Source of the DNA: Marsupella aquatica
Taxonomy: Eukaryota > Plantae > Marchantiophyta
Assembly (NCBI GenBank): GCA_973895155.1
Contig: OZ316894.1
Span: 15,740,699-15,804,698 of the forward strand
Direction of reading: 5' to 3'
Length of the DNA: 64,000 nt
The position numbers and the translations under genes are program-made. The notes below the pieces were generated by a model. The model did no database searches and had not been told where the DNA came from. It was given only the letters and a program-made list of their open reading frames with translations. Below, in pieces: positions 2,355-46,003 of this stretch (position 1 is the stretch's first letter; every line of letters begins with the position of its first letter).

Positions 2355-3766
2355 ATACCTCAAGCAAGAAACCTAGTGCCCCTTGCACAACCAACGGCCC
2401 CTCCCATACGAAGCCACACTTGCTCCCCAACACAACCGCTACTCAACGGTCCTCACAGTCTGCACAAGCAACCAAGTGTCTCGGTAAGTAACCCTTCAGG
2501 ATCTAGAACTCCCAAGTCTAGCATCCTAACTCAAGTTCACAGACATTGGTAAATAGGTCAATTATAGGTCCTCCCGATGCTTTAAGCCGGAACCAGAATC
2601 CACACCCATTGGTTGTCCATAACAGCTCCTTCCTTGAGCGCGGTCTGGGTTACCCCTTGTACCTATCCATCACCAACTGACCGCCCTGACCCCAAGACAT
2701 GCTCATGGCCCAAATAGCGTAGCTTGTCCTAAAGCTTGTCCCAAGTTTATCCCAACATGCCGGGACCAGAATGGCCCCTACTCTAGCAACCAACTCCTAG
2801 TTCTCGCCCCATTGATGGTCTAGGGGCTAGGCACCCTTGGAACTCAACCTCCACGCCTACTTGGCCTTTCCTCCCCAACGCAAGCTCCCTTGGGAGACTG
2901 AACGCGGCTTGGCTGCTGTTCGGCAGGATTTGGCAAGCGGGCAAGCCAACACCCGCAAACCTCAAGAACCCATGGCGCCCCCAGATCCAGCTGAGCTCAA
3001 GAGGACGTAGCCCTCCTTGAGAGCTTTCCAACGCACCCAAGAAGTCCTCCAACAAACTTCCTGTTGGGAAGATATCGCCGTTTCCGTTTGGCGCTTTCCC
3101 TTAATGTCGCGACCGCTGCGGCTCACGACTTCGGCTTGCCCTTGGCCCCCAAGGAGACACCACTCCCCTTATGTATGCTTCTGGAGACCTGTCACCCCCA
3201 GACCAGCTTTGGTCCCTAAACATTTGGCCTCCAACCCGGATCCTATCGCGCATACTGGGTGCGCCACCAACTGGCAACGCCCATATCTTTCTCGTTAGGC
3301 GTTCGCAAGTGGAGTGCCTTAGCCCGTTGTGATTGGGCCGACCCAATGCTCATGCCTAGGCCCTCAAGTCTCATTGCCGCTCAGGGCCCCCGACCAACCC
3401 AACCCGGATCGGGCCATAACTTGCGCCCCAAACGTCCGTTGCCCATGGCGTCAACTCCATTGGCCTTGGGCCCAAGAGGAGCTCTCACTCAAGCCCTCAG
3501 AACTCAAAGTCCGTCCGGGGGTCCGGACGGTCGACCTTGAGTCCGGCCTGTTTCCCCTTGACCCAACCAGCTCTCAGCTAGCCTAAGTCCTTAGTGTGTG
3601 TCACCAGCTTGGCGCCTTGCCTTCGCCAGTGCCATTTCCCATTGCTCACAAGTCTCCCCATGCTAAGTCCTCCCCGGAGGGCCTATCCGGGCCTGGACCA
3701 TAAGGGAGCTCGGCGTCGGAGTCAGCGACGCTGGAGCTAAGTGTTAAGGTAGTCGAGTTCCGTGAC
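2355..3766. mobile_element. Family B interspersed repeat, copy lacking the left inverted repeat
   Basis: Colinear similarity to ~47478-48890, ending ..AAGGTAGTCGAGTTCCGTGAC. A short fragment also lies at ~6060-6150. Confidence 0.8.
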
Positions 3767-13181: not shown

Positions 13182-14806
13182 TTACAGTGGAAGGAAAGGA
13201 GTCCACCAGGGTCCGTCATATTTGGCATATGGGGCTGTCCATACTCCTGGCTTTTCAAAATTAAGCCCAGTAGAAGAATTCCCCCCCGCTAGTGCTTCAG
13301 CTACGGTATCAGCCTCGAAAGCTCCCTTAAGAACGCGATCCAACCTTAATTTCATGAACCTGGTGGGCAAGCGATATACATGAGTCACACTGTCACCACG
13401 CAGCGTATTCAGAATGTAGCATCTATTCTTGGGTTGCTCTCTCTCAAACTGTTATATAATTGCTTCCGTCTCCTATTTGTCACGAGTGTGTTCTTTCCCA
13501 AAAGTCATTTGGCTCCCTGTTCCCTAAAATGAGGATATAAAGTACGACAGTAAAATTATCATGTTATTTGCTCTCAAACTTCGACAACTTACGTGATCCA
13601 CGTGGCATCGGTAGAGACGAGGGCTACAGCAGGTCTACCGAGACGTTTTGTGATGTCAGGAAAACTGGCCAAGAACTCTGGTTCAATGACGAGCCAAAAG
13701 TCTTGCTCCTTACCCTGCTCACCAAAATACCTCAACCGCTCCCTCATCGACTCTTGAAAATGCTCCTCATCATCTAGCATAAACTTGGCATTAGCCACGA
13801 CAAAATGATACTGGGTTCTCTGGATCAAAAACCACGAAAATCATCATGAGCTACTACGCGTGCACTTCGCTGTCTACAGGAGATCCAAGTCTAAGATCAT
13901 GAACGAAAGAATTCGTATGGGATATTGGGTCCCAATTCAATGGTTCTTTTCGTCCTCATAACTTATAATCTCTTTGTGCCTGACGGTAACAGTGAACTTT
14001 CAGGTTGTCATTCGTATCTGTCTATCTACGCTACGATGAACTCAGGAATGAAAAACCGTTCATTACCATCTACTTTATATTTGTAGAGCCCATTGATGTG
14101 TCGTCTGTGCCAGAGTTGTATAAGTACAGATAGTTTTAACTTGGTCATTGACTAGGTGATTCTCACACGCTACCTTTCTCTTTCCAAAAACTTAATCTGG
14201 GGACTCTGGACAATTCAAGGTAATCGTATAACGTATGAGATTTTCTACGATAACATCTTTACTTTCAATAATTGACCAACCTGCTCGGAGAAAACTAGTA
14301 AAGATTCTATTTAACTGCTTTTGGAAGCGTTGCCCATTCTTTCCGCCATAGCCGGGAGAAACAATCGGACGTTTCTAAAGAGAAGTGGACAAGAGAACAG
14401 TCTTCGAGTGGGTTCACAAATTTTAAGCTCAGTTCGTAACATTCTTAATCTGATGCAGTTCTTCACATTCGTAACAAATGCAGCTACTGTAGTTTCAAGT
14501 CCCACACGAACTGACCTGAGACGCAGCAGTCGAGATAGGTTCGACATTCTCCACAGCCTTCTCGGCAGCAACGGCTTGGACCAATCGGGAAAAAAGTGTG
14601 CCAGTAGCAGCTTCCACAACGCTTGCGGAACGGCTGCTTGGAATATTCATGGAAACGGTGGCCCCAGCAGTGCTACACGGTCGGCAAGCGAAGCTCACAC
14701 TGCTCCTGTTGAGGTTGTTGTCGCAGTTATACCCGCGGTGGAGGCCCTGCTGGACTGGGCCAGAAGCCCACACGGCTGAGGGTGCCCCAGCCTGTGCTAA
14801 AGCCAT
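13182..14806 (-). CDS. YCF54: Ycf54/LCAA chloroplast Mg-protoporphyrin monomethyl ester cyclase auxiliary factor; exons 14806-14516, 13819-13593, 13359-13182
   Basis: YHFVVANAKFMLDDEEHFQE..RERLR..GE...EQDFWLVIEPEFL..ALVSTD..WITFMKLRLDRVL is the Ycf54 signature. GT-AG introns are phase-consistent. Exon 1 resembles a transit peptide. Confidence 0.95.
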
Positions 14807-15241
14807 CGCTTCCTACCACTCGCTTTCTCGCTTGCAACGTGACCCGCAAAACCCAAGACCCTGACACGATCTCCTTTGCGAGGATAGGATATTTCGTAGA
14901 GAAGAATGCAGATAACAGACGGAAATTCCTGTTTCCTCACAGCGGAGCTTCTCGTTTGCGCTCCCTCTCTCACTCGCTAGGCACCCTCTGCTGGAAAAAC
15001 AGTTCGGCAGAGAGGCAAAACCAAGTTTGGCACAGAGGACCGGGATCTCACTCACTCACTCACTAGTGAATCGGAGCTACGAGTTACAGAAGGGGCTTGA
15101 ATTTCTGCTTACTCTTTGAATTCGACACTCGAGAGGGACGGACGGAGACTCGGGGAGTCATCAAGTTGGGCTGTTACGAGTAAAAAAAAATCCTTGAAAT
15201 GGGTGATTTTTTGCTCAAACCAAAGTTTGGACTTGTTGGCC

Positions 15242-16253
15242 GGGATATAAGCTTGATGGCCCCTGGTGAACCTTTCTTACCTGATGGCCCCCTAGATAAC
15301 TTTTTTTACCGAGTAGGACCCTCTTAATGACCAGTACACCTGTTCTTATGTGGTGCCTACACCTGTCCTTATGTGGTGCCTTATGTGGTGCCTACTATGT
15401 ATGGTGACTCCAAGCAAACTGCACAGTTGAACTGTGCAGTCAACCTTGCATGGTCGCGCGACCGAGAAACCACGGAGATGATTCGGGAGAAACCGCGAAA
15501 AGCGACTGCCGCTGTCAAAACTATGATTTGAAGACAATATGCATTATGTTTTCGGATTCAATGGGTTAATGCCTGAAGACTCAATGGATTATGTCTTCCC
15601 ATGTTTCAAGGTTTAGGGTTTAGGGTATACCCGACACCTTTGGGTCTGTCTTCTTTTGAAATTGTTTGTATGCATTGCACAAGGGAGTATTACCATTTTT
15701 TGAGCGCAATTGTCAATCATTTGCCAATTTTTGTTGTGGCGGGCAGTAGGCAAATTCTGAACATTGAACTTGAATATTCTTTGTGGACATTTGGAGGTAC
15801 CCCACACTGACGCTGACAGTCGTGCATGAAAACATCGTGAAAAACCCATGTGCGCAACGTGAAAAACATACCTAATAACTACCCCACGATATGGTAAAAA
15901 TTTGAACCCGAAGACATAATCCATTGTGTCTTCAGGCATTAACCCAGTGAATCCGAAGACATAATGCATATTGTCTTCAAATTGCAGTTTTGACAGCGGC
16001 AGTCGCTTTTCGCAGTTTCTCCCGAATCATCTCCGTGGTTTCTCGGTCGACCATGCAAGGTTGACCGCACGGTTCAACTGTGCAGTTTGCTTGGAGTCAC
16101 CATACATAGTAGGCACCACACAAGGACAGGTGTAGGCACCACACAAGAACAGGTGTACTGGTCATTAAGATGGGTCCTACTTGGTAAAAAAAGATACCTA
16201 GGGGCCCATCAGGTAAAAAAGGTTCACCAGGGGGCCCATCAAGCATATATCTC
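15242..16253. mobile_element. Mutator-like foldback MITE, ~350 bp TIRs, 10-bp TSD CTTGTTGGCC
   Basis: 15242-~15598 is the reverse complement of ~15910-16253 (GGGATATAAGCTTGATGG.. / ..CCATCAAGCATATATCTC). The TSD is at 15232-15241 and 16254-16263. Confidence 0.93.
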
Positions 16254-16896
16254 CTTGTTGGCCGCTAGTAACAGCAAGCCTCGCTAGCAAAAACCCATCG
16301 AACAGTTTGTTCATATTTGAATGACTAATGTTTGTTTAAGAAACCTTTTGAGTGAAGTATGTCAATGTAACTTTTTTTTTAAACAAATTGGACAATCCAA
16401 AATAGATATAAAGATCATCACCAAAGCACTTGGCAAGGAGTTTTACTTGCAATTTAAATGATGGGCCTGGAGATTGGGAGTCATCAGTATCTCAGATAAA
16501 CACACAAAATTGGCACCATAACCAACATAAAAGGTTGGCAGTGATTTCAGGGAGAGTTGCCAACTGTAAAAAAAGCCAAGTCTGTAAAGACATGATATCC
16601 GACCTTATCAGGGTATGTGACTATGTCACTGATAGTTTTCTCAATGAGTAACAAACCAGGGTCCAAATCATGAACCTACAAAACTTTTCAAAAATATAGC
16701 TAGCGACCTCCCTAGCAAACCTGATGAACCAATATCTGGTGTTTTATAAATAAATTAAAGGGAACTTCATATGGAGTGTAAATATGATCTCTCCCTACCA
16801 ACACACAAAAAAGTCTACTCCCAATGGTACTTACATATATATTAAAAACCAATGAAAACCTTATTAAAACCAAACCTCACTCTAAAGTGGATAACA

Positions 16897-19800
16897 TCAA
16901 ACCTCAACTCCCCTTTGGATCAGATCGGAAACTTCAGCGACAGTTAAAATAGGCTGCTTGACTACATCCGAAGTCTCTAGGTTCAAATGGTAAACATTCT
17001 TGTAAACCCAAAGGATATGTTTGCAAGACATGTAAGGCTTTCCATGCGAATGCCGCTTATAGAAATCCTCAGAGGAGCAACATGGGAAGACGCACGACTG
17101 AATCCAATATTTACTAGATTTACTAGGGTTGTTTTCATGCGTCGCAATCAAAAACTGTCTTCCCCATCCGTTACCTTGGATGATCTTTTCACAAGCCACA
17201 ATCCTCATTTGCTCTTCATTTGCAGACTGAATCCTTTTAACAAGTTCTGCAGTGAAGTTGAAACGTTGACGAGCACCCTTCCCATTCCGCGTCCTCAGTC
17301 GTCTATTCAAATAGTTTACATCAACCTTTTCTGGAAAAGAGTTCACGTCAATTTGAAGTTCCACGCGACCTGGAGGAGCAACACTGCCATCTGGTTCGCA
17401 ATCCATGTAATAGAGACCATCAATCTGAAAACCCAAGCCAATCAAGAAGCTGATTTCAGGAGGAGTTAAGTCTGTCCCTCGAAGAACTTTTAGAGACGAG
17501 GGTACTAAGGGAAGTTGGGCAATTGACTTGCGCCCCCTGGTCTTGTGGCAGACATTGTTTGGGCAGAAGTATAAGAGTTGAGGATGTGGTGAAGTCATCC
17601 TCAAACCATGGATTGCAACCCCAACCACACCGTCCGCAAGACCGAGTATGAAAACCTACACTGTTCACCGTAATTAGTGTTATGCAAGAATTAGTGTTAG
17701 TACAAAATTAGTGTTACTAACACTAATTTTGGTAAAAATGATTTTGAGTCCAAGTAACACTAATTTTTGTCGGTTTTCAAAATGAATTTTTTTCAGTTTA
17801 GTTTAAATTGCTTGTAAAAAACGGATGATCTCTAGTCCAAAGTAACACTAATTGTTGTGGATTTTTTAAAATAGTTTTTTTCTTTGTATTTTGCCACTTT
17901 TAAGACCATAGTAACACTAATTCATGTGCGCAAAAATAGTGTTAGCACAAAATTAGTGTGACTAACACTAATTCGCGAGTAGACCCTGAAAATGGGCGCT
18001 CTCGAATTAGTGTTACTCACACTAATTACGGTGAACAGTGTACTTCCTTGATTAAATTTCGACACTCATCTCTTCCAGAAATGGTCCTATCCATAGACCC
18101 ATTGCACACTGGACCATTTCCTTTCCCGCACCGCCTTAAGTGCCAAGTACCAAATGGGACATCAACTTCATTTACCGCAGGTATTCTCCTTGGTGAAACT
18201 GGTTCCTCTGGACGGACAGGAGATACATGTTGTTGTGACAATGGCTTAGGAATTTCAAAAGTGTCATCTCCTGAGCTCTCAGTGTCATTCCCTTCATTAT
18301 CGGAAAGAAGAATCACGACGGATGGATCTGGACAACTAGAGAATGTTGAAGGATGGAGTATGCCCGAACTCTCCTTCAACTTGTCGCTCTCTTCCACGAC
18401 ATTGACACTCCGGAAATCAGAATATGAATTTCTTGGATGTACGCCTCTTGTCATCGCCTCCGTGCACATCACCTTATCATGTCGATGAGAGTCTTCAGCA
18501 CCAACTCTATGAAAAAGCTTGGCCTTTTCATTTTCTGGACTTTGTGCAAAGATCTCCATGAAGTGGTTGAGTGCGATGGAACTCATATTTTGGAGATGAT
18601 TCAAGCAGAAGATTGGTTGCTTTCTCAAAAGCATCAAGGGATCCTAGTGTATCTGCATTCCTATATGCAAGTTCAAATATGGTAGGTCCATGTCCCCTGT
18701 GGCATCTTTCAATGTACGCAGCAAAGGCAGCAATCTGCCCACCAGCACAATTTTGATCAAGCTCACAAGCTTCAATCAGTCCAATCTTCTTCTTCATTTG
18801 GCAAGCTCTCATTGAACCATGTACAGATTCGGCTCCAGTACAATTTGGCATCAACGCTGACTCCTTTGTTGTTTGAGTCTGAAGTCTAGACATAAACAAA
18901 CACAATCATTGGGAGGCACATACTTGATTTGAAGATAACATTCATACACGAAAGGAATGCTAGCGACATCGCTAGCCAAAAACAATGAGTTTACTTACAA
19001 GTCTGAAGAAGTTTCCCCACTGTCGCCATCGGACAACCCACCAAGCAATCCAGCCTTGCAAAGATCTCAATTTCCCAGGGTGACAATCCCCACACTTCCA
19101 CCACTCTTGAATATTGTTAGCCATCCTGTAAGCTTGAACATATGAGGGTGCTTCCTAAATTTCTCCCACATTTGGTAGTGTTCGGAGTGTTTCCCTTCAC
19201 GAATTCCCTCCACGGTATGACATCTTAGTGACTGCGAGAAATGGAATGCATCACTATGTTCTTTCTCAGGGAGACGAACACCATCAAAGAAAACATTTCT
19301 CACAGCGATCCATCCAGCTTCAGCATTGTCAGCCATAAAACCAGCTATGTTTACATTGGAAATACCATTCTCAGCAACAACTTCCAACATTAAACGCCAT
19401 GCAGTTTCTAGTGAATCAACATCCTCGGCTTTCAATTCACAAGTGAAGATAGTACAAAGAGCGCGATAAGTGTGATCGTATACGTGAGCACTAAAAGTTA
19501 ACCAACCAGTAGTTATTCTGTGCATCACGTCAAAACTCACCCAAGCTCCCTCTAAAGTTCCACCTTTTCGCATCCGATTGAGAATGTCAACTCCAAAACC
19601 GGGACCTTTGGTACTCATCTTGAATACATGCGCTCAAATGGACTTGCCAGCCTGGCCAGGGAACAGGAAACGTTGTACAAATGGAAATCTCACACGCATT
19701 TGCATGTCACGAAGCAAATCCAACTAACCTTTCTTGGGATTCCCAATTTTAACGCTCCGGAAAATTGCATGGAATTTTGCCGGCGAGGACACAACTTTCA

Positions 19801-21032
19801 TCGAGTTCCACAATTCCACCTCCTCTTCTTTTGAAAGATCGTGACATGCCTCAGGGTGGAGAAGAGATATCAATGTACCTATTGAAATATTCTTCACACG
19901 GGAAGGGGTTGCCAAGGGATGAGCTGACTGAACTTCTTGAATAACATCTTCCACCTTTTTGTTTGCAACTCGACACTTCCCCATTCGGATGGGATGATCA
20001 TGAACTCCCATATGCACTGCGAGTCTAGACATGTGTTTTGAGACATGAGAGTCCAAAGTTGGCTTTGCATAAACATAAAACATCATTGCTGGACAAGGCC
20101 GGACACAATAAGGTCTCTCATCACAAAAGCCACAAACCAAACCTCCTTCCGGAACCAGATTTCCCGGCTGGAAGACATCGGTCATTAGTGATCTTCCAGG
20201 AAATGCCGCTTCATTCCTCATTCCTGTCTCCTTGAACCTTGAACAATTCAAATTTTGGCACTGCACAACACCACTGCAACGGACCTTGAAAACAGACCAG
20301 TGATTACATGGCTTTAGGTTAGCCAAAGTAGTGACCAAGCGGGTCCAAGGGTAGCCATCATTGTCGCGGTCCATGTCAAGAAGCCCTTGACCGCAACCAA
20401 ATCTTGACTCCATCGGAGGAAGCTCATATACCTTGTCTCCATTGTAACTTGTTGGAAGATGATCAACTTGGACATCAACCCACGAGACATCTCTTCTAAA
20501 TCTTGCTAGCTCACTTGCCCCAGTAATGCTCAAAAACGCTTCAAGCGCACCAATTCTGTAGACTTTCTGCAAAAGATGACATCCCAGAGCACTTGGAAGA
20601 GCAATATCTACTTCCAATTTTGTAGAACAACTTCCAAAAACAGAATTAGTACCCTCAAGAGTTGTAAAGTTACTCAAAACTAGAGGCCTGGACATTCGTT
20701 TCTCTCCCCGGGGGAGAGTCCAGGTCTACAAGCACTTTTCCTTGAGGGTTCTGGAAAGGCTCTGGAAAATCATCTTTGCCTGATATAACCTCCACCACAT
20801 CTCCGGAAGCAACCTCCCAAACTCTTTCACCAAGTAGAGTTCCTAAAATTAATTCATCCTTCCTTGATCCATGAAGTGAAACAAGAAAGAACAATCTCGA
20901 AATGAAATCACAGTTATTGAGCCCAAATCTTGTCAAAAGAAAGGCCTCGATCACATTAGTGATCTTTCTCAAAGATGAAAGAGTAGCAATGTCTCCAGTG
21001 CTCCGACGCCAGAAGATGACGCTCGGAGCCAT
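16897..21032 (-). pseudogene. MULE-type DDE transposase with N-terminal GCM/FLYWCH-like Zn domain and C-terminal SWIM finger (stops, frameshifts, MITE insertion)
   Basis: Zn domain C.G...C....C..CGFC..C...C..H.G.H.HP (19724..20695). Catalytic-like WVSFD, FMADN, DAFHFSQ (MULE CxxH box) and AESVH(E). SWIM-like C.CSSEDF...CKHILWV. Intron ~18998-18886. In-frame stops between 19724 and 19618 read through to FPFVQ..FPGQ..VFKMS. Confidence 0.85.
17659..18040 (+). mobile_element. MITE, family A copy 2 (intact), inserted in the MULE transposase; TA duplication
   Basis: Perfect 22-bp TIR CACTGTTCACCGTAATTAGTGT / ACACTAATTACGGTGAACAGTG flanked by TA on both sides. Removing it rejoins LIKEV|GFHTRS. Confidence 0.95.
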
Positions 21033-21880
21033 CAAATGAGGACCAAGACAAGAACCCAAATGTCACAAAAATCATGGATGAATATATAGAATAATATGAA
21101 GACATTAAAGTTTAGAATAAAACGGAACATCACTTTAACGTTGCATATACGACAAAACTTCAACGGCTCTAATACCTTCAAGAAATGAATTATTGCTAGC
21201 GATATTGCTGGCCTAAATTTGCTATCATAAAGGGCTCCATATAATCCAAAGTTATATCTTGTAATCGTCCAAAACATTGACTGTTTTCTGTTGACAACAA
21301 GGATATCTTGGGTTGTTCCTAAATGTTTACTGAACTTGGAGTACATTAGGAGGATTATTGAACTTGGAGCTTCGTGTTAAACAACGGTTTTTGCTAGCGA
21401 CCTCGCTAGACATAATTTAGGAAATTTTTCTGTGTTTAAGATGGACTCTATTATTAAACCAACTCTATTTTTAGTGATTCTATAATATGATTTTCACTCA
21501 CAAATTGACATTAACAGAGGAGAGGATTCGGAGATGTCCCATAAATTAAACCTTTTAGAAACCCTGAATCAGGCCAGCGATATCGCTAGCCTGATGCACC
21601 CAAAATTTAGGGTAGACTTTTATTTGAGTTTGGGATTAAAATGAGGGATATCAAAATAAATATATTTCCGAAACGTTATGTTTACACATTAAACATTGTT
21701 AAGTTTGTTTGACTTCTGTCAAGTATTTTAGAATTTAGGAAAGAATTAAGGGTTCATTTAAAAAACAATACATCACTTTTAACCTACCCCATTAACACTA
21801 ATTTGGCCAGCGATGTTGCTGGCAAAAAAGCGTCTAAATACATGTCTTAAACAAAGTATGGAGTTTGCCTATTTTTCCTT

Positions 21881-21916
21881 ATCAGTCATCTAATCAGTCA
21901 TCTAATCAGTCATCTA
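21881..21916. repeat. Tandem repeat, 3 x ATCAGTCATCTA, in the divergent promoter region of the MULE
   Basis: Directly visible. Confidence 0.85.
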
Positions 21917-22323
21917 ACGACAAAATTATATTACCGTTGGAAGGATTAACTTCATTTTCTACATCCATCGGCATATTTTGTATGACACCCAACCCAAGTT
22001 GGTCAGCTATAGAGTAATTGACTCGAACTGTTGGAGTCAAATGTACATTTCATCCGAACGAGTTGTTGTTAAGCAGTAATTAGACTCATTCTTAACGTTA
22101 ACTGATGCTTTGTTAATGTTAGTTAGCACCAGCGGGATCTTTGGCATGAAGGTGTTAAATACTGATATTCCCTGTCAATGTCAGATACACTGTAGGTTAC
22201 TTTGGATTCCCCCGATATCTTGCTTAGGATTCCTAACACATGTGACTTTGGATTCCTTTGCAAATCACCGTACCAATTGAACCTTGTATTCCGTTTACGT
22301 GGTTCTCCTCTCCTTATCAGTCG

Positions 22324-25300
22324 ATGGCAACTTTTGCATCCCCTGAGTCTATTTCGTCCGTTGCCTCACAATCAGCTGCCTCTCAACGTCGAGAGACCAG
22401 GAGTTCTACGAGCCACAAAGCACTTGCTTCGGGGCTGAAGACTCCAAGGAGGCAAAAGCTTGTTGATCCTATGGATATTGTGCCACCTTCGATGGATTCT
22501 GCCAAGTCCGAGCCTTTCTTAGTTGTCATTAGCCACCATCTTTACCAGTTTGGGCCGGACAAATTTGGGTATCCTCTGGTTCCCCCTCGAATTCCATTGT
22601 GTCGAATGCGGAACATGCAACTTGTGAGGTCTCTTCAGACAGATTTGAATGCAATTGAGACTTTGAAGAATGAGTTCCGGGCTCAAGGGTACATTGAGGA
22701 CGTGCCTCATTTTTATGTGCAAATGACAAATGAGAATGGCGACGTGCAGTTTCTCAACGACACAATCAGACAGGGCTGGGATCCAATGTGGTTGGCGCAG
22801 AATGAAGCTTTTGAGAGGGAGTGTGATTCGCATCCTGATTTTGCGGTGCTCAAGGATAAAATGTTTTGTGTTTTTGATGGCAATCACCGTCTCTATTCGT
22901 GGAACCTGCTTGTTGTTGAGAATCCTCACGATGTCAAATATCATCCTCGAGTTGTCTCGAAGATATTCAAAGGAGAGAAGGATACTGTCGTGCAGATTGA
23001 ATCTACAATGCATGGTCTCAACCGGTGAGAAGATCTTTGACACATTTGATCTTTTTCCTCCATCTTTTGTGCATGATTTGTTCTTGTTGTTTTCTGAATT
23101 CTGTCCTCATTGTCAGGTTGACACAATGCCATGTCAAAAATTCGTGGGTGCTGGAAGCTGATCGGGTCCAGAAGATTTTGCGCACAGACCTCTCAGTTTA
23201 CAAAGATTTAATTGATCCAGAGAATTTCAAGTTATTTCAGCAGAAGATGCAAAATGTGAAGAAGCCATCGTGGTATTCGAAGCAAATGACCTTAGATGCA
23301 TGTATTTATATTCTTTCAGCGGCAAACATAGCTTCGCAAACTGTTGACTTACTCAAGAAGTTTGCACTGAAGGAGGAACTTGGTGAACCTCTGTCGAAAG
23401 CTGCAAAGGACATTGCAATTCGAGATATGATGAAGGAGCAACTCTCTGACTGGAATGTCAAAGTTCCAAAGTTGCCCCGCTTCTGAATCCAGACTTTGGG
23501 GATTTCTTCAAGAAATGTGTTGAGATGCACAATTATTGTGAGAAAGAAAGGAAGGAAGCTCAGCGGACGGATGATAAGGGGAGAGGGAATGTTTTGTGCG
23601 GCCTTGATCGTGCAAGGCTTTTCACCGGGGTAACTTCTCTGAGTCCACAACTCCGTTGCACTCTTCTCGAAGCACAGTGCAGACCAGAGTTGCGTAAACA
23701 ATATTTCCACCCATCTCAATTTTTGGATAGTGAGACCAAGCTCTGGTTGCATCGATGGGCAACCTGGGAACACGTAGAGTCCATTGCGAGGTGCTTATTA
23801 AGTGAAGCAATCTCTGAGATTATTCTCACTGTCCCTGAATCTAGAATTCTTTCTTCCGCAGAGAATAGTCGGGCATCCCTCCTTGTTGAAATTGATGATG
23901 AGTTTGAGGATTCCCTGCAGCGGGTTAAGGTAAGGTTCTTTAAGAGCATCTGGAACCCGAAAGTTGGGGAGAAGATTGACATTGTTGCTTTTTGACGGAG
24001 GGCAAAAAGATATGTTTACAAGTTTTTTGTTGATCGGGAGGTAGCAAATAGATCTTTTTGGTGGTGTTATCCGACATGTTTCTCTCAATGGGCACAATAT
24101 GCAAGAGATGATTCCGGTTGTGAGAAGTTTGGGGAGTACTCGATGTACCCTATTGAGGACATTGAACCCTTGCGGAAGATAAGTGAATGGGAGGTGCTGC
24201 ATTGTCCCTGGTATTTAGATTCGGAGAATTGGTCACTGACATTTGATGTGACAGAGAAAGCTGCGCTTCAAAAGATCAATCGTGGCTTGGTCCCAGAATT
24301 CTTTATTAGTGAATCTAAATTGTGCAACCCGGAAGTAGAAATTGCTGGTTGTGTGTCAATGGAGCAGGCATGCCTTGGGGTGGCACCAACTGTTGATAGG
24401 AGCCACCCTCGGAAATTGAAGTGGGATGTTGCCAAGGAGGTATCAAAAGATGGCTCTATGATTTCTGGAAAGAAAAGTAAGTATATTCTTATCTCTCCGA
24501 AGCTTACTTCTATTACCTCTCCCAAGCTGCTATTCTGATTAAGTTTATGACATATCCTGAGGCTCTTAGGTTGCTTTTTGTATCCAGAAAGGAAGAAGTC
24601 TTCGGGTTCCGAGAGTGTTCAGACTGTGACTAATGGTCGCCAGGAGGATCTTGTTGAGCCTGAGTCTCCCAATTTTGAAATTGTGACTAAGCCAGGAGGT
24701 GATAAGTCAGGGTCCCAGAGGTTGAAGAAGAAGCGAAAGGTTCAAGTGTTGTCAGATTCTGATGAGGAAGAAATTTCAATCCGAGAGGGTGTCACAAGGC
24801 TCTGTGGACTCCAGTTGGATGGAAGGCGACATTTCCTTGCAAAGAGTAATCTGCGCTTGACGGCTGACTCGATAAGTATGAAGAAGGTTCGACCTTCTTG
24901 GATGGGGGAGGGGGATCAATGGCTTTCGGAGATTTCAAGTTCTTCCGAACACCCGAATCCCTTAAAAATCAACGGGAAGCCTTACACTGGGACCGGTGCC
25001 CATCTGGGGTTCATAGCTCTTCCGACTGGGCTGAGGCCTCGTGTTACCGATGTGGACATTCCCCCATGGAATGTCTAGGTTGAGAAGCTCCCTTACTATT
25101 TCTTTGGAGTGATGAGGCCCATGTTGGCCGATGATGGGTATGTGGCCGTTCTCCATAGTGGAGAATTTAACCACACAAAGCAAATTTTTGCTGCTGTTGA
25201 ACAGAGGAACAGATTTAAACACCTTCGGAAGTACCACGTTTTATTGGGGTCCCAATGTGGATGCCAGACATGAACATTGAGGTGAGATTTGTGTAAAATA

Positions 25301-25903
25301 TGCATGGTTTAGTATGTTTTTTTGACAGCAATCTCGCTGGCCTTCCTGGATTCATTAATTGACGTTTTTTTGTTCTTTTCCAGGTTTGCAACTTAAGCCT
25401 GGATGTCTTTTGTCGAGTGGAATTCAATGGGAAGATCCCAAAAGACCCAAAGTATGTCCCTTTGGCAACGTCTGAAGATGCATCACATAAGACGATGTTG
25501 AGTCTTTGTTATCCAAAAAGGGATACCAAGGCAGAGTTAACTTTTTCTGGTTCCTCTCGGTTGTCTGTTGGATTCATGCAGGTTGTGATGGAGCTTCTCA
25601 CAAAGCCTAGAGACATTGTGCTTGATTGGAATATTGGAGACGACAGTTCATTTTCAGCTGGAGAACTCTCCGGGAGGTTCGTTGTTGGGGTCGAGGATAG
25701 GGATGTTCTCCATGGTGCTGCAGAGAAGGCATTGAAGAGTGTTCTTGAGAGACACAAGAAAATTGAAGACCTCACTGAAACATTGGAGGACTTCGATTGA
25801 GAGGATGAATTTTCTCTTGCAGGATCAAAGAGTGAAAAACAAAGATGGGGCTCCTAATGTTACTGATGCAAAAGATGGGGATGATGAATTTGACCTGGAG
25901 TAA
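22324..25903 (+). pseudogene. ParB/Srx-like N-terminal domain + C-terminal beta-class N4C/N6A DNA methyltransferase-like protein (TE cargo; introns ~23025-23116, ~24478-24587, ~25283-25383)
   Basis: ParB-like: VRSLQ..L.....F...GY....FYV...VFDGNHRL. MTase-like: MRPMLADDGYVAVL (cf. RVLKPGG) and ELLTKPRDIVLDWNIGDDSSFSAGELSGRFVVGVE (cf. TKPGDIVLDPFxGSGTT..A....R.FIGIE). One frameshift (~23470) and in-frame stops (23993, 25076, 25798). Confidence 0.75.
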
Positions 25904-26023
25904 TGTACTGGTCCTCTCGCTTATACCAGATCCCTTTGCTTTAATCAATTGGCTGGTGAAGCTTGCTATTGTCTTTCGATTGGATATTTCATTGATAGTG
26001 CTCTCATTGTTTTCATGATTTCA

Positions 26024-26378
26024 GAGATTCTCGTGTCGACTGGTTTTCTGAAGAGAGATTTTGGCTTCGAAGGAAGATTGAAGAATCTTGCATTGTTTCT
26101 CCTCAGAAGACGTTTACTCTGCCTTGCTATGCAGAGAAGTCGGCAATTCAGTCGGATGATGCTTTTGTAATCTCCTGGGAAGGCAAAGGTCGTAGGTCAC
26201 ATCGTGGCGCCAGACAAATTTATATTGCTTGCCTTTTGTTGACGATGAGGCATGCCTTGTTAAGCAATATGTTGATGAGTCTGCTGAGTCAACTGATCGG
26301 GATTTCAGTAGTGACCAGAGCAATACTAGTAGTAGGAATGATATAGAGTCGGATGAAAGTCATTCAAGTGACTTATGA
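26024..26378 (+). pseudogene. Additional degenerate coding exon (DSRVDWFSEERFWLRRKIEE...acidic tail), unknown function
   Basis: Follows a tttcag acceptor. The frame is open for ~115 codons with a single TAG. Confidence 0.4.
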
Positions 26379-27250
26379 TTTAGAACAATATCCCTGGACA
26401 GTTTACTCACTTACTGTCAGTTTTGACAAAGTATTGGAGGCAGTACACTTTTTGGAAATATGACTTTGAAACGGGTTTGAAATCTGAGTTGATTCATTGA
26501 CTATGCCTTTTCATATCCGCCTGGTGTTTTACTAGCTTGTGTTTAATCATATGGTTTGTCAATGATTGAAGGCTAGCGACCTCGCTGGACATAAAATTGT
26601 ATGATCCCATTCTGGAAAAAAGGTTCATTTCTGTCGTAGAAGTCTCACTATACTCCCAATTTGCCACTCTGACCATTAGTTTTACCTCACTAGCAACCAT
26701 TAACCTCGCTGTCAATATCTCCTGTTTCCTCGCACCATACAAACCCCCCCATCATTGTCCCAATCCACTTCACTATTGGTTGTGATTACAATAGGGTGAC
26801 TCAAAGCTGAGATATTAGGGGTAATGGCATTCAGCCATTAAGGAATAACTTTTTCATAGGATTCTGTAAAAGTTTATTTTGTTTTTCCTTTCACCAGCGT
26901 TGAGAGTGACTAATGGTAATGGCATAAGATCAATCCTTATGGCAACAAGTTATAGACTCTAAATTTGGTGGTCCTTAACTTTTTGTGTCCTTAACCAGTA
27001 ACTAGGGAGTTAAAGTTCAGCTTTGAGACTCCCTAACAATAATGATATGTGTAGCCCAAATTTTCACTTATCCTCTTCAAGTGTCTAGCATATGCTGGTC
27101 CAGGCACAAAATAGTCAGGGTGGCTTTACAAGAAGTATGTGTGGGGGCACTTGTGACTTTTTCACACCCAAGTAAATTGAGGAGTCAGTTCTTCTTCTAA
27201 TTAGAGTATAGATCAAAATACTTTTTGAAATATCTATATAACTAATATAG

Positions 27251-27634
27251 ATGAGAAGCTAGAATTGGGGTCTAGTCTTGTAAAGTCTAGCCTCCCTCTT
27301 GTACGTCTTCTCCAAGAGGTCTATTAATTAGGACTTTGAGAAAGATGACCTTTCCATAGTGACTCTAAGGCCCCACCAAAATTTATGTGGATGGAAAGAA
27401 GAACTAGATATTATGTATGTCAAAATGATGATCATGCATGATGATTTTTGTCATCACTAGACTTAATTCACATGCCTTGAATGTTCATAGAAATTCTGTC
27501 ACAAATTAATTATCATTGTGACATACATAACATCTCTTTGTTATTTACATTCACATAAATTTTGGTGGGGGTCCTAGAGTCACCATCTAGAGGCTTCACT
27601 CTTAGAAGCCTGGGACCCAACTCTAGCTTCTCAT
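27251..27634. mobile_element. Degenerate hairpin MITE
   Basis: ATGAGAAGCTAGAATTGGGG / CCCAACTCTAGCTTCTCAT ends. Inner arms ccccaccaaaatttatgtg..tatgtatgtca / tgacatacata..cacataaattttggtgggg. Confidence 0.75.
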
Positions 27635-29079
27635 GGCCGCTGATTGATAAGATTTCTATTGCATTCGAAGAATGGGCATTCAGGCTCGTAAACCAAAATA
27701 CTTTATGAAATGAAGTTCAGTCAATGCATATCTGGATGAAGGGGACAAAATTTGGAAACACTTGGAGCACTTATGAAGATGGCCTAAAATTCTAGACCAA
27801 ATAAGAACACCACCTCAGCATTTCCTTGAGCCCATTGCCTGCCTTGCAGGATCCTTAGACACCCAACCTGAATCGGCTCCTGAGTTCTTGTAAAGCCAAC
27901 TGCAGCCATTTCAACTCAATATATATTGTCAAGATTGAATCTCAAAGGGAATTCTGAACATAAAATGATATGTCACCCCTTGGATAATTGGCCCCCATGT
28001 GTAAAGCCACCCTAACTGCCACTTCTTTGCAAAAATTTAACTAATCCAGGCACTGCCCACCTTTGCAGACATGTCTATTGAAGTGTTTTCTTATTCAGAA
28101 TTCTTGAGGAGAGTAGGAGCTTACCAAACAAGTTTGACTCAAGATGGGGATGGATTCTTCGGAGACATTGGCTGATTGGCGACTAACAGCAGCCACGCCT
28201 ACAGCTAAAACAGATGGAAATCTATTGTAGATTATCCCTAGTGTACTATATCATTTACTTGGTATTTGGATGAACTCATCCGTTACGGATAACAGGACAT
28301 ATGATGGAGCATGAGCAGTGGTCTAGTTTTACAATTCCTTTCATCTCTATAATGATGTGTGAATTTATCTATTTAAACCCCACTCAACCAATGACCAGAC
28401 AATTCTCTTGCTTGCAAACTAGGTGGCCACTTGTCTTCCTAGTTCTTGTGTTTTTAATTGATAAATGAGGGGCTCTCAATCCAAGGCCTAGACTAACAAG
28501 TAAGGATTAATTTACAAGAGAATATAATTATATACGAAAATGAGATTTTTGGCAGTTGTTGCACCTTTGGGCTGATGACCTTTGAAGTGGGACCTGCACC
28601 TCTCCTGTTGTTTTGGGTATTCCTTCGCCACTGTTTGGCATGCTGGTTCCGCCCATCTGAAGATAATTGCTTGATGACCCCCAAACCAAACTTTTCTCCC
28701 CAACCAACCCCATGAGATTTGGGTACTTTGATATAAAGTCTATCAACGGTGTGGATCACTCAGGTGCCCATCAACTTACACTTTTCATCTTGGGGTCCAA
28801 CAAGCATATACCTCCTCCCCCCCCCCCCACATCTGCAAGAGGGGTGACCCAAATAATCTTCAAAGTTAAAAACCAAAATAAACAAATCCCTGCAAGCCAG
28901 TTGAGCTGAGTGCACCTGGGCGCTTATTACCAGTGGTTACTTTCAGTGTCCTTTAAAGTGCTTCCTTTCCTCTTTCTTTTTCTTCATTTGGGAGTGTCCC
29001 ACTGAAATGAAGGTTTCTTCCTGAGGTCGCTGCCAATTTTTTGTCCAAATACACTTTGCCACTCTTTCAGTTTAATTTA

Positions 29080-29721
29080 CACTATTTACCATAACTAGTG
29101 TGACTAACACTAATTTGAGAGCACCAATTTTCAGGATCAACTCACAAATTAGTGTTAGTCACACTAATTTTGTGCTAACATGCATTATCTCCGCGCACAT
29201 GAATTAATGGTGTTGTGATCTCAAGAGTGGCAAAATAGAGGGAATAACTATTTTGAAAACTTCACAACAATTAGTGTTACCTTGGTCTCAACATCATCCA
29301 TGTTTTTACTAGCAATTCAACAAGAGTTTTTTTTTGTTTGAAAAATGGACAAAATTTAGTGTTACTCGGACTTAAACTTACTTTCACCACAATTAGTGTT
29401 AGTACACCTATTTTGTACTATTGCTAATCTACAACTATAATAAGGGATCCCACCTTTTTTGTACTTTGTCCCAATACAAAAAAAACTCCTGAGCGGGAAA
29501 GATCCATAGCTGTTGGATTCTATTAGTTATTTTCCTTGAGCATTGATGGAAGTAATGTGCACCCTTGACACATATGTGCTTACTACTGCCCCATAAATGA
29601 CCCAGCCCAACTCCCTATGGACTGGCCCTCCTTGCACAATGGACGGTCCTCCTTGCACAGTGCAATGCATTGGCATAGGGCTGGTTCTTGCATAACAACA
29701 CTAATTAAGGTAAGTGTAGTG
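29080..29721 (-). mobile_element. MITE, family A copy 3 (inverted, diverged), containing a nested Helitron
   Basis: Reverse-complement similarity to 17659-18040, split at 29427/29685, with TA on both flanks. Confidence 0.8.
29428..29684 (+). mobile_element. Non-autonomous mini-Helitron (257 bp)
   Basis: 5' TCTACAACTATAATAAG, 3' CTGG (CTRR) preceded by the hairpin CAGTGCAATGCATTG. Inserted between A and T with no TSD; the empty site CTAA|TTCTTGCATAAC is given by the other MITE copies. Confidence 0.85.
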
Positions 29722-29827
29722 TAGTATGTTGCCTTAATTTTCACCAGGGTGAGACATAAACTTTAATTTCAGTGCTTGATGGAACCCCTAAATTCACCCT
29801 GGGTTAGACAAATTAACTCAAGTTGAG

Positions 29828-30006
29828 GCCATCTTGCACCCTTTCTGAAGCGGACTGTTGAAACTCTCCTCAACCTTGTTTGGTCCATCCTGCTACAGTC
29901 CTACACCCCCCCCCCCCCCCCCTCCGATGGTGGTCATCTTGCACCTTTTCTGAATCGGACTGTTGAAACTCCCCCTCAACCTTGATTGGTCCATCCTGCT
30001 TCCTAC
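29828..30006. repeat. Two ~75 bp direct repeats separated by a poly-C tract
   Basis: ggYcatcttgcaccYtttctgaa.cggactgttgaaactc..ctcaaccttg.ttggtccatcctgct occurs twice. Confidence 0.85.
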
Positions 30007-42546: not shown

Positions 42547-43867
42547 ATGGATCGCATGAGTGCTTGGAGACAGAAATTCCAACAACAGATTGAGGCAGAG
42601 ATGGCGGCCATGGAGGAGGAGGATGAATTTTGGGAGATGGCCATTTGTACTGGACCACTCTCTCTGCAAGGAGTCCAATCATTGCAACGGAAGGAGCGCA
42701 AGCAAGGAGGAGGTTCGATGCGGCCTAGCAAGAAGCCCAACAAAGATAGGAAGCATGAGTGAGGACATCAAACCATTCTTGATGATTACTTCACTGAGCC
42801 TTGTACATATGATAGTAAGGATTTTTGTAGACAATTTAGGATGACCCGACATATGTTTGATAGAATCCTGCTTGCAGTTTCTCAACACGATCAATTTTTT
42901 CAATAGAAGAGAGATGCTACAAAAAATTTGGTCTATCTGAGTTGCAGAAAGTCATAGCTGCTTTGCGCCAATTAGCATTTGGGATAGGGGCAGATGCCAC
43001 TGATGAATATTGTAGGCTTGCAGAATCAACAGCCCGAAAGTCTCTCTTCCGATTTTGCTTGGCCATTAGAGAATTATATGAAGAGAAGTATTTGCGAAAG
43101 CCACACAAGAGTAATTTCTTGAGGCTACTGGATTTCAATGAAAAAAGAGGGTTCCCAGGCATGTTTGCTACCCTTGACTGCATGCACTATGAATGGAAGA
43201 ACTGCCCAGTGGCATGGCAAGGACAATTCACCGACAAAGATGGGAATAAATCCATAGTTCTTGAAGCAATTGCCGACCAGGAACTCTGGTTTTGGCACGC
43301 CTTTTTTGGACTTCCAGGTGGGAATAATGATTTGAATGTACTAGATTGGTCTCCTCTGGTCAACAACATGCTGCATCAACACTATGACTAGGTGCACTTC
43401 ACCATCAATGGAACAAAGTACAAGAAAACTTACCTGTTGGTTGATGGGATTTATCCCAAGTGGTCTTGCTTTGTCACTACCTTTCACAAACCTCAATCAC
43501 AGAAGAAAAGTTATTTTGCCAAGTGTTAGGAAGGTGCTTGCAAGGATGTGGAGAGGGCGTATTGCAAGCTAGATGGGGCATTATCAAGCAACCTGCTAGG
43601 TCATGGCATATGGAGCGAGTCCATGCTATCCTCATAGCCTTAATTGTGCTACATAATATGATAATTGAGGATGAAAGGGGCGAAGAGCATGAGGATTTCC
43701 TTGCTGAAGCAGGTCCATTGTTGACTATGCATACGGGGAGCATGCCGTGGAGAGATTACTTGGCTGCAACAAAGGACTTGGAAAATAGTACCAGTTGGTC
43801 TGGTTTGAGAAATAACTTAATGGAGCACCTTTGGCAGCAGAAAGGCGAAATAGGTGGAGAAGATTAG
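42547..43867 (+). pseudogene. Harbinger transposase (HARBI1-like DDE), several stops and frameshifts
   Basis: ALRQLAFG...DEY, RGFPGM...LDCMH..WKNCP.AWQGQ, LEAIA...LWFWHAFFG.PG.NNDLNVL, YLLVDGIYP, KDVER and LQARW motifs. Confidence 0.93.
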
Positions 43868-44640
43868 TTCCATGAACAGTTACGTACAGCAGACAATGTC
43901 CATTGTAGAACAGAGTGTACTCAATTTGCATTTTTATAAAAACAACTGGGATCTTTATTGCACAAGAGATTGGATTTGAGGAGACCCATGGCCTCATGTA
44001 CAATTGCTATCCACTAGTCGAGAGCACTCAAGACAAAATTGCTCTCATCGATGTAATCTATGTCTAGTCTAAGTCTGCTCCATGGACTTCGTAATTCCAG
44101 GTTCACCACCACACGGCAAACTAATCCAAGAGCAAACGGTGACCTGCAATTAAAATAGGTGGAAGCATATGTTCAGCAAGTGAGTTCCACAAGGAAGAAA
44201 GCAATGAACTATACGAAAACAGGAAACACTGAACAATACAAAAACAAGAAAGGTGCAATGAATTGAGAAATCCCTAAAACACATACCGTTGTTGTTGTCA
44301 CGCAGTAGGCCATCGATCCTCCTCTTCGTTGTCACCAACATCCTCCATAGACTTCAGTAGGGCTCGTTCTGAAGAAGACTCCTCCCATTCATTCAAGACA
44401 AAACAATGGACCACACCGGGCCCATCCTTGACACATTTTGATTGCCCCGTATTTGGGCCTCGATGCTGTGCACATGGAACAAAGCTCTCATTCTTTGGCA
44501 CAATTTTTGGAAATAATTCCACCTTGGGTTTGCCAACACGAGGCTTCAAAAATGATGGGCATGGTCGAGAGCATGCTCTCAGAATCCGAGTGAGAGATTG
44601 TATTTGAGTGAGACATGGTATCCTTGGATGCAAACTACCT
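43866..44640 (-). pseudogene. Possible third Harbinger gene with a Cys-rich (PHD/RING-like) finger
   Basis: One frame reads ELCSMCTASRPKYGAIKMCQGWARCGPLFCLE* (~44485-44390). A GT..AG intron-like segment lies at ~44287-44144. Confidence 0.35.
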
Positions 44641-45039
44641 GATTCCTTGCTGGTAAAAAAATGGAACTATTGACTACTGGAGCTCACAATAGCCACGGAC
44701 TGAATAGCAATGCGAGTAAAAGCAAAGAGATGGAATTAGCAGGGCGCGAGTAGGGACACAGATGTGTACTCAACCTTCGATGCAATCGAGAAAGGAAGTC
44801 AAAAGAAGACTGGCCTCGACATGAGGCTTCACATGTGTAGTACATAATGAGCATACTGAAGAGCATGACATACTGAGCATGAGAGTAGCGAGTACTGTCT
44901 GTGTACCGTGTGGAGCAATTGACATGGACACTACAATGTACACAATTAATATAGGATGGACAAAAGGCACAGGCATTTTATTAAATTTTGGTTTCTGAAA
45001 ACCAATACATCAAACAATTTTCCACTACATACAATTGAA

Positions 45040-46003
45040 CTACTGGAAAAATATTTCCTCAACTTCATGAGGAGTAGGGTTTTCATGAGGAGTCGGGGAG
45101 TCCTCATCGCTGCTTGGAGTGGGGGTTGGCAAGGAAGTCCTTGTTGCCCTTGTTGGCAATGGGGAGGATGCCTGAGACTGCCTAGCTGAGATTCTATCTT
45201 TCAGCTTTGCCATTTCATCCTGCTTCCACAAATTCAAGAATTCTAATGTCTCAATGTCCAGACCCTCTGTTGGGAGAGTGAGCATATTCATGAAAGTTTG
45301 GTTCTCCAATATTTCAAGTGCTCCAGCCCTGTCTGTGCCATGACCTTCTGTGCTTGGGCTGCAACCTTGAAAGAATCTTCATGTCCTTTCCCCTTTTTGG
45401 CATAATCCTTGGCCAGCTTTGTACCTAGTGGCCTCTTCAACCTAATTCCATTCGACTTCTGTTGGTTGCTAGGATCATTATCTGTTTCTGAATCAAGATT
45501 AATCGGGCCATCTGAATTGGGAAAATTCTCTGTGACCCCAACGAAACCCCCACTTGGTGCTTGTTCAGCAGACTTCCGTTTGCCCTTCCCTTTTGCCATC
45601 TGGTCCTCCAGCATCATCCACCTTGGGCAGTCCTTAAGAATTTCGTAACAAACTGAGAACGAGAATTCCTTCCCGAGTGTCGTGTCTTGTAGAGTTCCTT
45701 GGCCTTGATGAAGGTGTCGTCACTATTTGTGCCTAAAATATCTAGGTCTTCTACCAATTGATAGCAACCAATGAATCAAGTGGTAGCTTTTCAAACATCA
45801 CCCCATGTGGCCTCAAGTGATTTTGTTGATCTGCTCTCATGGCCTGTCGGCCGATTTCCATCGTAGTGCTCAAAAACTCTCTCCCAAAAATTCTCTCTCT
45901 TTTGCCCACTGCCGACGCAAGGGTCTTGGGATATCTCCAAGTATGAATTATGGCAGAGTTGTTTTAATTCAGCTGGACTAAAGTTCTTTCCCCGTTGGGC
46001 CAT
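45040..46003 (-). pseudogene. Harbinger ORF1, Myb/SANT-like DNA-binding protein with NAM-associated-like region (disrupted)
   Basis: RGKNFS..E..QLC..SYLEISQDP.VG.GQK...FWER....Y......RS..SL...W, plus KRPLGTK.AK. Confidence 0.88.

Follow-up and report, generated by a model that had tools for sequence, protein, structure and literature searches.

Transposons with a ParB-like accessory gene have been noted recently in algae. The Ectocarpus element Sola1-1_Ec32 encodes, on the strand opposite its transposase, a 1104-residue protein that joins a ParB-like domain to a predicted N4C/N6A methyltransferase, and this protein was proposed to bind and modify its own element (PMC12477816). In red algae, PAG3 (and PAG2) of Plavaka/EnSpm elements combine a ParB-like N-terminal domain with inverted-repeat arrays beside the gene, again with a hypothesis of self-binding; PAG genes are likewise found in red-algal Mutator and Zisupton elements (Bostrychia preprint, bioRxiv 10.1101/2025.02.11.637652). 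The VANC proteins of Arabidopsis VANDAL elements, accessory proteins of Mutator-like elements (MULEs) without terminal inverted repeats (TIRs), offer a further parallel; their family-specific motifs, amplified by tandem repeats (PMC5735166), lie in intronic, intergenic and terminal non-coding DNA (PMC5735166, PMC6446971). Here we describe a dead copy of a repeated two-gene plant DNA transposon in a 64,000-nucleotide stretch of the liverwort Marsupella aquatica (contig OZ316894.1, positions 15,740,699 to 15,804,698; hereafter the window). Its minus-strand transposase gene diverges from a spliced plus-strand cargo gene, whose predicted product is ParB-like with a methyltransferase-like C terminus, and its non-coding DNA holds a palindrome of its own. 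The element is a land-plant, Mutator-like variant of the algal class. Our preferred reading, to which we give a probability of about 0.45, is that the cargo protein recognizes palindromes of its own element and controls that element or counters its silencing; in this lineage it probably does so without adding a methyl mark.

The features shared with the Sola1-1_Ec32 and PAG3 elements are a ParB-like accessory gene in a DNA transposon and adjoining inverted-repeat arrays, matched by description. Sola1-1_Ec32 is a brown-algal element of the Sola-1 superfamily, 21.5 kb long, with a 282-bp imperfect TIR and a 4-bp target-site duplication; the portions of its text and supplement available to us do not mention palindrome arrays, and the likeness is again one of description (PMC12477816). 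The window element, in contrast, belongs to land plants, has a Mutator-like transposase, spans about 10.5 kb with no long TIR found and carries a non-canonical methyltransferase motif IV. PAG3 differs in being fused to a 2-oxoglutarate oxygenase, the N6A methylase sitting in the separate gene PAG2 with a SET domain (bioRxiv 10.1101/2025.02.11.637652), and VANC differs in that its motifs are 8-9 bp long and not palindromic, and in that its function was shown by experiment (PMC5735166, PMC6446971). The domain order of the cargo is also that of prokaryotic and phage ParB-N6N4-methyltransferase fusions, which are among the commonest fusions in bacteria and phages (bioRxiv 10.1101/2025.10.10.680097), and ParB fused through a helix-turn-helix to another methyltransferase group was reported from chlorophytes and chytrids (Iyer 2016, PMC4738411). 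The preliminary description of this locus knew of no earlier account of the combination. Such accounts exist: the domain pair and the hypothesis appear in PMC12477816 and ParB with inverted-repeat arrays in bioRxiv 10.1101/2025.02.11.637652. For land plants we found no description of ParB-accessory transposons, only the two algal papers, in a literature coverage that excluded Repbase and Iyer 2011 (green algae).

Contigs from 4 of 5 sequencing runs were placed on positions 13500-30000. Run X1 gave a depth of 186-690 over those bins of 16255-26723 that are free of miniature inverted-repeat transposable elements (MITEs), against 17-20 in the single-copy flank contigs, and three further runs repeated the pattern, contig depth being a rough guide that yields no copy number. 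A depth about tenfold or higher over both genes and their spacer, between single-copy flanks, means that genes and spacer were multiplied as one unit, and by contig depth the region behaves as a DNA transposon does, repeated as a unit with unique flanks. Chance nesting of two elements was considered and is ruled out by the even depth and the recurring divergent layout, as is a host gene by the multicopy state and many broken paralogs. Without its two insertions the element measures about 10.5 kb and holds just the two genes. The proposed linkage of a multicopy transposase and cargo, with private palindromes in non-coding DNA, is thus borne out, and other lineages show such linkage and such palindrome clusters as well. 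This copy is inactivated, as had been noted, by stops and frameshifts in both genes and by a TA-flanked insertion at 17659-18040.

The broken transposase gene, probably of the Mutator-like DDE type, occupies 16897-21032 on the minus strand, with an uncertain start codon, and was delimited by homolog alignment and tblastn (E 1.6e-166). Its features run in the order N-terminal Cys/His finger, FDVMH, FMADNA, DxFH, an intron at 18886-18998, AES and a C-terminal CKH motif. In an alignment of nine homologs (core identity 56-76%) the finger, FDVMH, FMADNA and DxFH are present; AES after the intron and the CKH motif are seen in the window transposase. The stretch CCSSEDF...CKH in 16900-17655, with a comparable one in locus L030, looks SWIM-like by eye, with no match to Pfam SWIM. 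The order D..D..DxFH..E, judged by eye, resembles the pattern of MULE transposases. No Pfam MULE, NCBIfam, PHROG or PDB-sequence match was returned by the window pieces or by up to 9 homologs; because no library confirmed the motif order, Mutator-like remains a likely label for the sequence. The MULE/SWIM transposase first described here is a minus-strand transposase with nine homologs, and the two domain names attached to it find no match in Pfam. The sole transposase model found in Riccia, R1sor_024525, has no cargo locus tag seen adjoining it (nearest 024501 and 024551).

The palindrome has the 18-bp consensus GCTAGCGANNTCGCTAGC, that is GCTAGCGA-N2-TCGCTAGC. Seven sites within three mismatches of it fall in the window, all inside 16699-26589, where 0.04 would be expected in the whole window and the maximum in 50 Markov simulations was 1; an eighth, at 25324, has four mismatches. 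A weight matrix built from the 8 sites gives them 23-30 bits, a score circular for those 8, and the next best site in the window 14. Palindrome 1 (16699-16716, one mismatch) lies beyond the transposase stop and palindrome 2 (18959-18976, no mismatch) in the transposase intron. Palindromes 3-6 (21195-21823, starting at 21195, 21393, 21573 and 21806, with 1-3 mismatches) lie between the divergent gene starts, palindrome 7 (25324-25341, 23 bits) in cargo intron 3 (25282-25383) and palindrome 8 (26572-26589, two mismatches) beyond the cargo 3' end. All eight avoid coding sequence, and their positions relative to the exons agree with the restriction to non-coding DNA that had been claimed. The "at least 9" copies once counted comprise these 8 of 18 bp, and nine is reached only with two spacing variants, both recognized in the sequence: one with a 3-bp spacer at 16270-16288, its right half-site perfect at 16281, and one with a 9-bp spacer at 26689-26713. 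In a blind search the spacer of the element was the sole palindrome-cluster tile among the 33 tiles of the window.

The cargo gene has three GT-AG introns and is collinear with residues 79-1170 of a 1207-residue Riccia protein (tblastn E 1.3e-58, linked pieces). That protein, an uninterrupted gene model, matches all four exons in order and so confirms the fusion; in Riccia the ParB-like and methyltransferase-like parts lie within one open reading frame (ORF). Exon 1 (22324-23024, plus strand, like the rest), placed from homologs and a Riccia model, encodes the predicted ParB-like N-terminal domain (about 22510-23022) with a DGNHR box at 22876-22890. Exon 2 (23117-24476, with a frameshift near 23460 and a stop at 23993-23995) encodes a helical region that aligns with the ParB DNA-binding domain, interrupted by long inserted helices, and then a helical domain without fold assignment. 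Exon 3 (24588-25281) provides a linker and the first half of the methyltransferase-like domain, with ALPTG at 25016-25030; its stop (25076-25078) and frameshift (near 25250) both differ in contigs of other copies. Exon 4 (25384-25800), with DWNIGDD at 25624-25644, encodes the half that would bind S-adenosylmethionine (SAM). A further, acidic and frameshifted coding tail (LPxYAE ... FVDDEA) is possible at 25999-26378, where the evidence is weak (Riccia tails, tblastn E 0.61); contigs of other copies have an indel at 26215. A tail with LPxYAE, F[IV]DDEA and an acidic end recurs, weakly, after the methyltransferase-like domain here and in Riccia P0165, P0166 and P0181, and, judged by sequence, it could be the final exon or else a third, small gene.

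A HMMER scan of 1.84 billion representatives found 237 homologs of exon 1 at E<=0.001; the 19 representative matches looked up bore, where named, only the names Riccia and Adiantum. For both genes, every named homolog is from Riccia sorocarpa or one of two Adiantum ferns. Searched by word index for longer proteins, exon 1 returned no match. The DGNHR box is conserved across 84 aligned homologs (G 94%, N 99%, H 93%, R 88%), in keeping with the divergent spliced gene and GNHR box first reported. Pfam ParBc had no match in the window or its homologs, and the ParB exon drew no informative match from NCBIfam, PHROG or PDB sequences. We modelled a 906-residue Riccia homolog from a 127-row alignment, and the predicted local distance difference test (pLDDT) of the ParB region was mostly >90. 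In a Foldseek-independent structure search of 48,161 chains, five of the top six were of ParB/Srx fold: KorB (first), PadC, archaeal ParB, sulfiredoxin and SerK. Model residues 27-390 align with whole, C-terminally truncated chains of ParB and Noc, DNA-binding domain included, at Z 8.2-8.7 and a root-mean-square deviation (rmsd) of 5.7-6.1; the best are 7o0n (Z 8.7, 193 of 194 residues, rmsd 5.7), 6sdk (Z 8.4) and Noc (Z 8.2), whereas proteins with the N-terminal fold only score lower on the same model (PadC 7.2, sulfiredoxin 5.7). Foldseek gave the 906-residue model no hit at E<=0.001 in the PDB or viral library, and residues 392-590 received no fold assignment. In these models a ParB N-terminal fold with a GxxR box is well supported, and a ParB-type DNA-binding domain with long inserted helices is suggested.

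The predicted protein thus resembles the ParB clamps Spo0J/ParB, Noc, KorB and VirB in its N-terminal fold, GxxR box, conserved Asn and following helical domain, and the candidate palindromic sites are similar in length to theirs. It differs in its Box II (DGNHR), its large insertions, the lack of a ParA partner and the fused methyltransferase-like domain. The two-gene element holds no ParA ATPase, and none was found among the 150 of 358 ORFs scanned in related loci. Pattern scans for prokaryotic or viral relatives of the ParB exon, which are insensitive, gave 55 matches in viral contigs and 19 in prokaryotic genomes, none confirmed. The nucleotide preference of ParB-family proteins cannot be predicted from sequence or models (bioRxiv 10.1101/2025.10.10.680097).

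The C-terminal model, again of a Riccia homolog, matches beta-class amino-methyltransferases (Foldseek E 3.7e-10 to M1.HpyAVI, then CcrM, BceJIV and N4CMT), profile searches find CcrM and DpnA-type chains (E 0.003-0.013), and motif IV precedes motif I, as in the beta class; a fold of this class, anticipated in the preliminary description, is therefore predicted for the cargo. Exon 4 matches a Riccia-based profile at E 6.5e-40, the window row being part of that profile. Among the Pfam domains at issue, MULE, SWIM and ParBc return nothing and N6_N4_Mtase returns a weak match, at E 0.023 in the window and 9e-6 to 5e-5, just under the curated cut-off, in Riccia homologs. In Adiantum capillus-veneris P0101, a NIF phosphatase domain (Pfam E 2.4e-12) follows the ParB-like and methyltransferase-like parts; this may be a mis-joined gene model.

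Could the cargo be a self-marking enzyme, its ParB part targeting the palindromes and an active methyltransferase writing N4-methylcytosine (4mC) or N6-methyladenine (6mA) on the element? Besides the predicted fold, the SAM-binding motif is conserved across Riccia copies that are 40-95% identical in the methyltransferase-like domain, the first Asp and third Pro of motif IV are retained, two fern copies keep the aromatic residue of that motif, and 4mC is present in Marchantia sperm (bioRxiv 10.1101/2021.02.12.428880). Against it, the canonical PP(Y/F/W) is found in no copy seen. Motif IV is visible in 21 Riccia proteins (33 proteins examined in all), and every one of these reads D[LM][PS][ST][GR], with no aromatic residue; the residue is also missing in the window (ALPTG) and in locus L004 (DIPEN); ferns, with DVPFG, DFPIG and DLPFG, come closer to (D/N/S)PP(Y/F/W), yet none is canonical. 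In active enzymes such as the rotifer N4CMT this aromatic residue stacks on the target base (PMC10406627). N4CMT, of the same beta-class fold, has a canonical SPPY and no ParB domain (PMC10406627), and MpDN4MT1 has a canonical TSPPY and likewise no ParB domain (bioRxiv 10.1101/2021.02.12.428880). An IPPW in the window protein was considered as the catalytic motif and rejected, the alignment placing motif IV at ALPTG. Moreover, Pfam, NCBIfam and PHROG matches are confined to the SAM-binding half. The non-canonical motif IV weakens the suggestion that the cargo delivers an N4C/N6A mark; its other half, that the cargo mimics one, fits better in this lineage, and self-marking appears unlikely to us.

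The layout was also followed in other lineages. A scan of metagenome contigs found 122 relatives, the best 80 of which represent 51 distinct loci; 37 loci (34 distinct) were analysed, most contigs shorter than about 3 kb and duplicates having been dropped. A methyltransferase-like stretch follows downstream on the cargo strand in 16 of the 19 distinct loci with >=3.5 kb downstream, as found with a profile iterated on the same loci, which makes its E-values optimistic. Among the 34 distinct loci, 5 carry a related transposase on the strand opposite the cargo and upstream of it (4 of the 14 with >=5 kb upstream); elsewhere we saw one weak match downstream and none on the cargo strand. Other DNA-transposase families were sought among 150 of the 358 long ORFs of these loci, where only LTR-retrotransposon (long terminal repeat) and host domains appeared. 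A blind search for repeated palindromes, counting >=4 dispersed copies as a cluster, covered the 1.9 kb that lie upstream of the ParB exon. Of 27 loci, 15 held a cluster there; of 52 control windows at a distance of >=5 kb on those contigs, 2 did (Fisher p 3e-7). About nine lineages, including that of the window, each have a different palindrome, and motifs are common within cargo clades (two clades at 100/100 support); because kin share motifs, this indicates lineage specificity, not co-evolution with the protein. One lineage (L023, L027, L032, L051 and L028) has two palindromes, CAACTTT-N8-AAAGTTG and TTGGAGCT-N4-AGCTCCAA, whose copies are interleaved on the upstream side of the cargo; inside the cargo gene the first of them also forms a 51-bp tandem array. 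Two palindrome motifs are also present in several loci outside it. The sequence common to L023, L027, L032 and L051 breaks off about 2.5 kb upstream of the ParB exon, where no transposase is seen; these loci may be cargo-only, non-autonomous derivatives.

The palindromes might instead go unread by the cargo, as sites for the transposase or by-products of tandem or inverted duplication, with the cargo a passenger or an enzyme activator. The transposase has a predicted finger of its own, arrays often lie inside tandem units, and cargo-free small elements in the window carry repeated palindromes too (AATTAGTG-type, as at 17659-18040). Furthermore, all sampled loci bear the cargo, cargo-less transposase elements falling outside the sample. 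On the other hand, clusters at the metagenome loci adjoin the cargo 5' end and sit in cargo introns, not at both ends. The sequences flanking the palindromes are mutually unrelated in the window and in L036, with a majority identity of 0.45-0.57 against 0.81-0.85 in the motif, for sites picked by motif match. In addition, the cargo has a predicted ParB DNA-binding domain, and the same pairing occurs in red algae with a different transposase class (bioRxiv 10.1101/2025.02.11.637652). On balance we find this explanation improbable, much as we do self-marking.

Returning to recognition and regulation without a mark, we propose a model where a cargo dimer would read the palindrome through its DNA-binding domain. 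Nucleotide binding at the DGNHR box, CTP not being implied, would close the dimer into a clamp that could spread over the element. The loaded protein would then control the divergent promoters and counter host silencing family by family, like VANC in VANDAL elements, or VirB or KorB in bacteria; VirB, a ParB-derived protein, acts as an anti-silencer in Shigella. The methyltransferase-like domain, with its SAM motif kept and D-[LM]-P-[ST]-G in place of (D/N/S)PP(Y/F/W), may serve dimer formation or DNA engagement and not catalysis. That the cargo binds the palindromes at all, be it for regulation without a mark, for active marking or for a role in transposition, seems quite probable to us, every functional step being one that we infer.

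Several observations weigh against this model. The structural match was obtained with a Riccia homolog, whose identity to the window gene is 23-32%, and not with the window's own protein; over the DNA-binding part it is loose (rmsd 5.7-6.1), and a Z near 8 can reflect a common arrangement. The model of the methyltransferase domain has low confidence (mean pLDDT 53). Catalysis is conceivable, given that two fern copies retain the aromatic residue (DVPFG, DLPFG) and that motif I, [FY]xGG, is kept in 20 of 20 Riccia proteins showing it (DWNIGDD in the window). Twelve of the 27 loci lack a palindrome cluster, the cluster window size and spacing rule were set after a first look, and the 27 loci share ancestry. 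Several arrays are parts of tandem units of about 137 bp or 51 bp, and repetition within such units requires no protein. Ten of the 14 loci with >=5 kb upstream show no related transposase, and most loci are decayed. A phage ParB activates a DNA-modifying enzyme without a DNA-binding domain or nucleotide-binding residues (PMC13229309). Finally, CpG is depleted in both genes (observed/expected 0.57) and 4 of 16 palindrome CpGs are lost, which marks this as a copy without visible protection.

The ends of the element bear on one more possibility. The left boundary had been put at 16264, which is wrong: contigs of other copies run straight from 15231 into 16254, so that the 1-kb element lying at 15242-16253 must have inserted into the transposon's left end. 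That end occupies 15168-15241, its start (about 15170) being uncertain; multi-copy contigs show an indel at 15182, depth is low across 14602-15152, and the one candidate 9-bp duplication for this placement is not above chance. The inserted element is an unrelated high-copy fold-back MITE, identified by its inverted arms, its empty-site joint and a 10-bp duplication, CTTGTTGGCC, at 15232-15241 and 16254-16263; loose contig ends stop at 16253. Its arms are nearly full length, and it has GAAGAC...GTCTTC palindromes of its own. The second insertion, a TA-flanked unrelated MITE at 17659-18040 with 24-bp perfect arms, TA on both sides and more copies in the window, splits the 3' part of the transposase. 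The right end falls between about 26720 and 27136, depth being still high in 26724-27274. Between candidate ends, no terminal inverted repeat was better than 12/16, which is chance level, and target-site duplications amounted to 4 candidate 9-mers with one mismatch against about 6 expected by chance.

ParB proteins spread on and bridge DNA, and the cargo protein could in this way be a transposition cofactor that binds the palindromes and gathers and pairs the ends of an element without long TIRs during cut-and-paste, as would suit the palindromes and variants near both ends of the element (16270, 16699, 26572 and 26689). We think this less probable still, because four of the eight palindromes occupy the space between the promoters and another two are intronic, an arrangement also described for VANC sites (PMC5735166).

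By eye, spliced plant-type genes surround the element. A further insertion with inverted arms, skipped by other contigs, occupies 27137-27882. The small TA-flanked elements at 17659-18040, about 1798-2104 and 29078-29414 form one non-coding family, which carries repeated AATTAGTG...CACTAATT palindromes. Broken ORFs at 42864-45719 resemble, by eye, a PIF/Harbinger transposase (plus strand) and its partner ORF (minus strand). A 1.4-kb direct repeat, 81-94% alike, lies at 2357-3743 and 47474-48861, with an inverted partial copy at 47082-47466, and a degenerate purine-rich tandem array of 18-19 bp units at 1040-1736.

To our knowledge, VANC alone has been shown to let a transposon recognize and un-silence itself. 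The idea of ParB accessory proteins, voiced for red and brown algae, is here extended to land plants, a group that includes bryophyte and fern models open to transformation. What is new is a controlled count that ties palindrome clusters to the cargo gene, with a motif that changes with lineage, and a predicted DNA-binding domain. The methyltransferase motif, degraded in some lineages and nearly intact in others, bears on the origin of non-canonical DNA marks in plants, and the matched protein-site pairs are suited to binding and swap tests. It is tempting to speculate further that liverworts, ferns and related plants carry transposons with a full ParB sliding clamp of the bacterial type, loading in a nucleotide-dependent manner at lineage-specific palindromes, spreading along its element within plant chromatin and countering silencing there. 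Its fused methyltransferase would actively write 4mC/6mA in certain lineages (ferns) and be a pseudo-enzyme elsewhere. Taken whole, this broader picture is doubtful. If true, it would be the first nucleotide-gated ParB clamp in the plant nucleus, together with a natural library of orthogonal protein-palindrome pairs.

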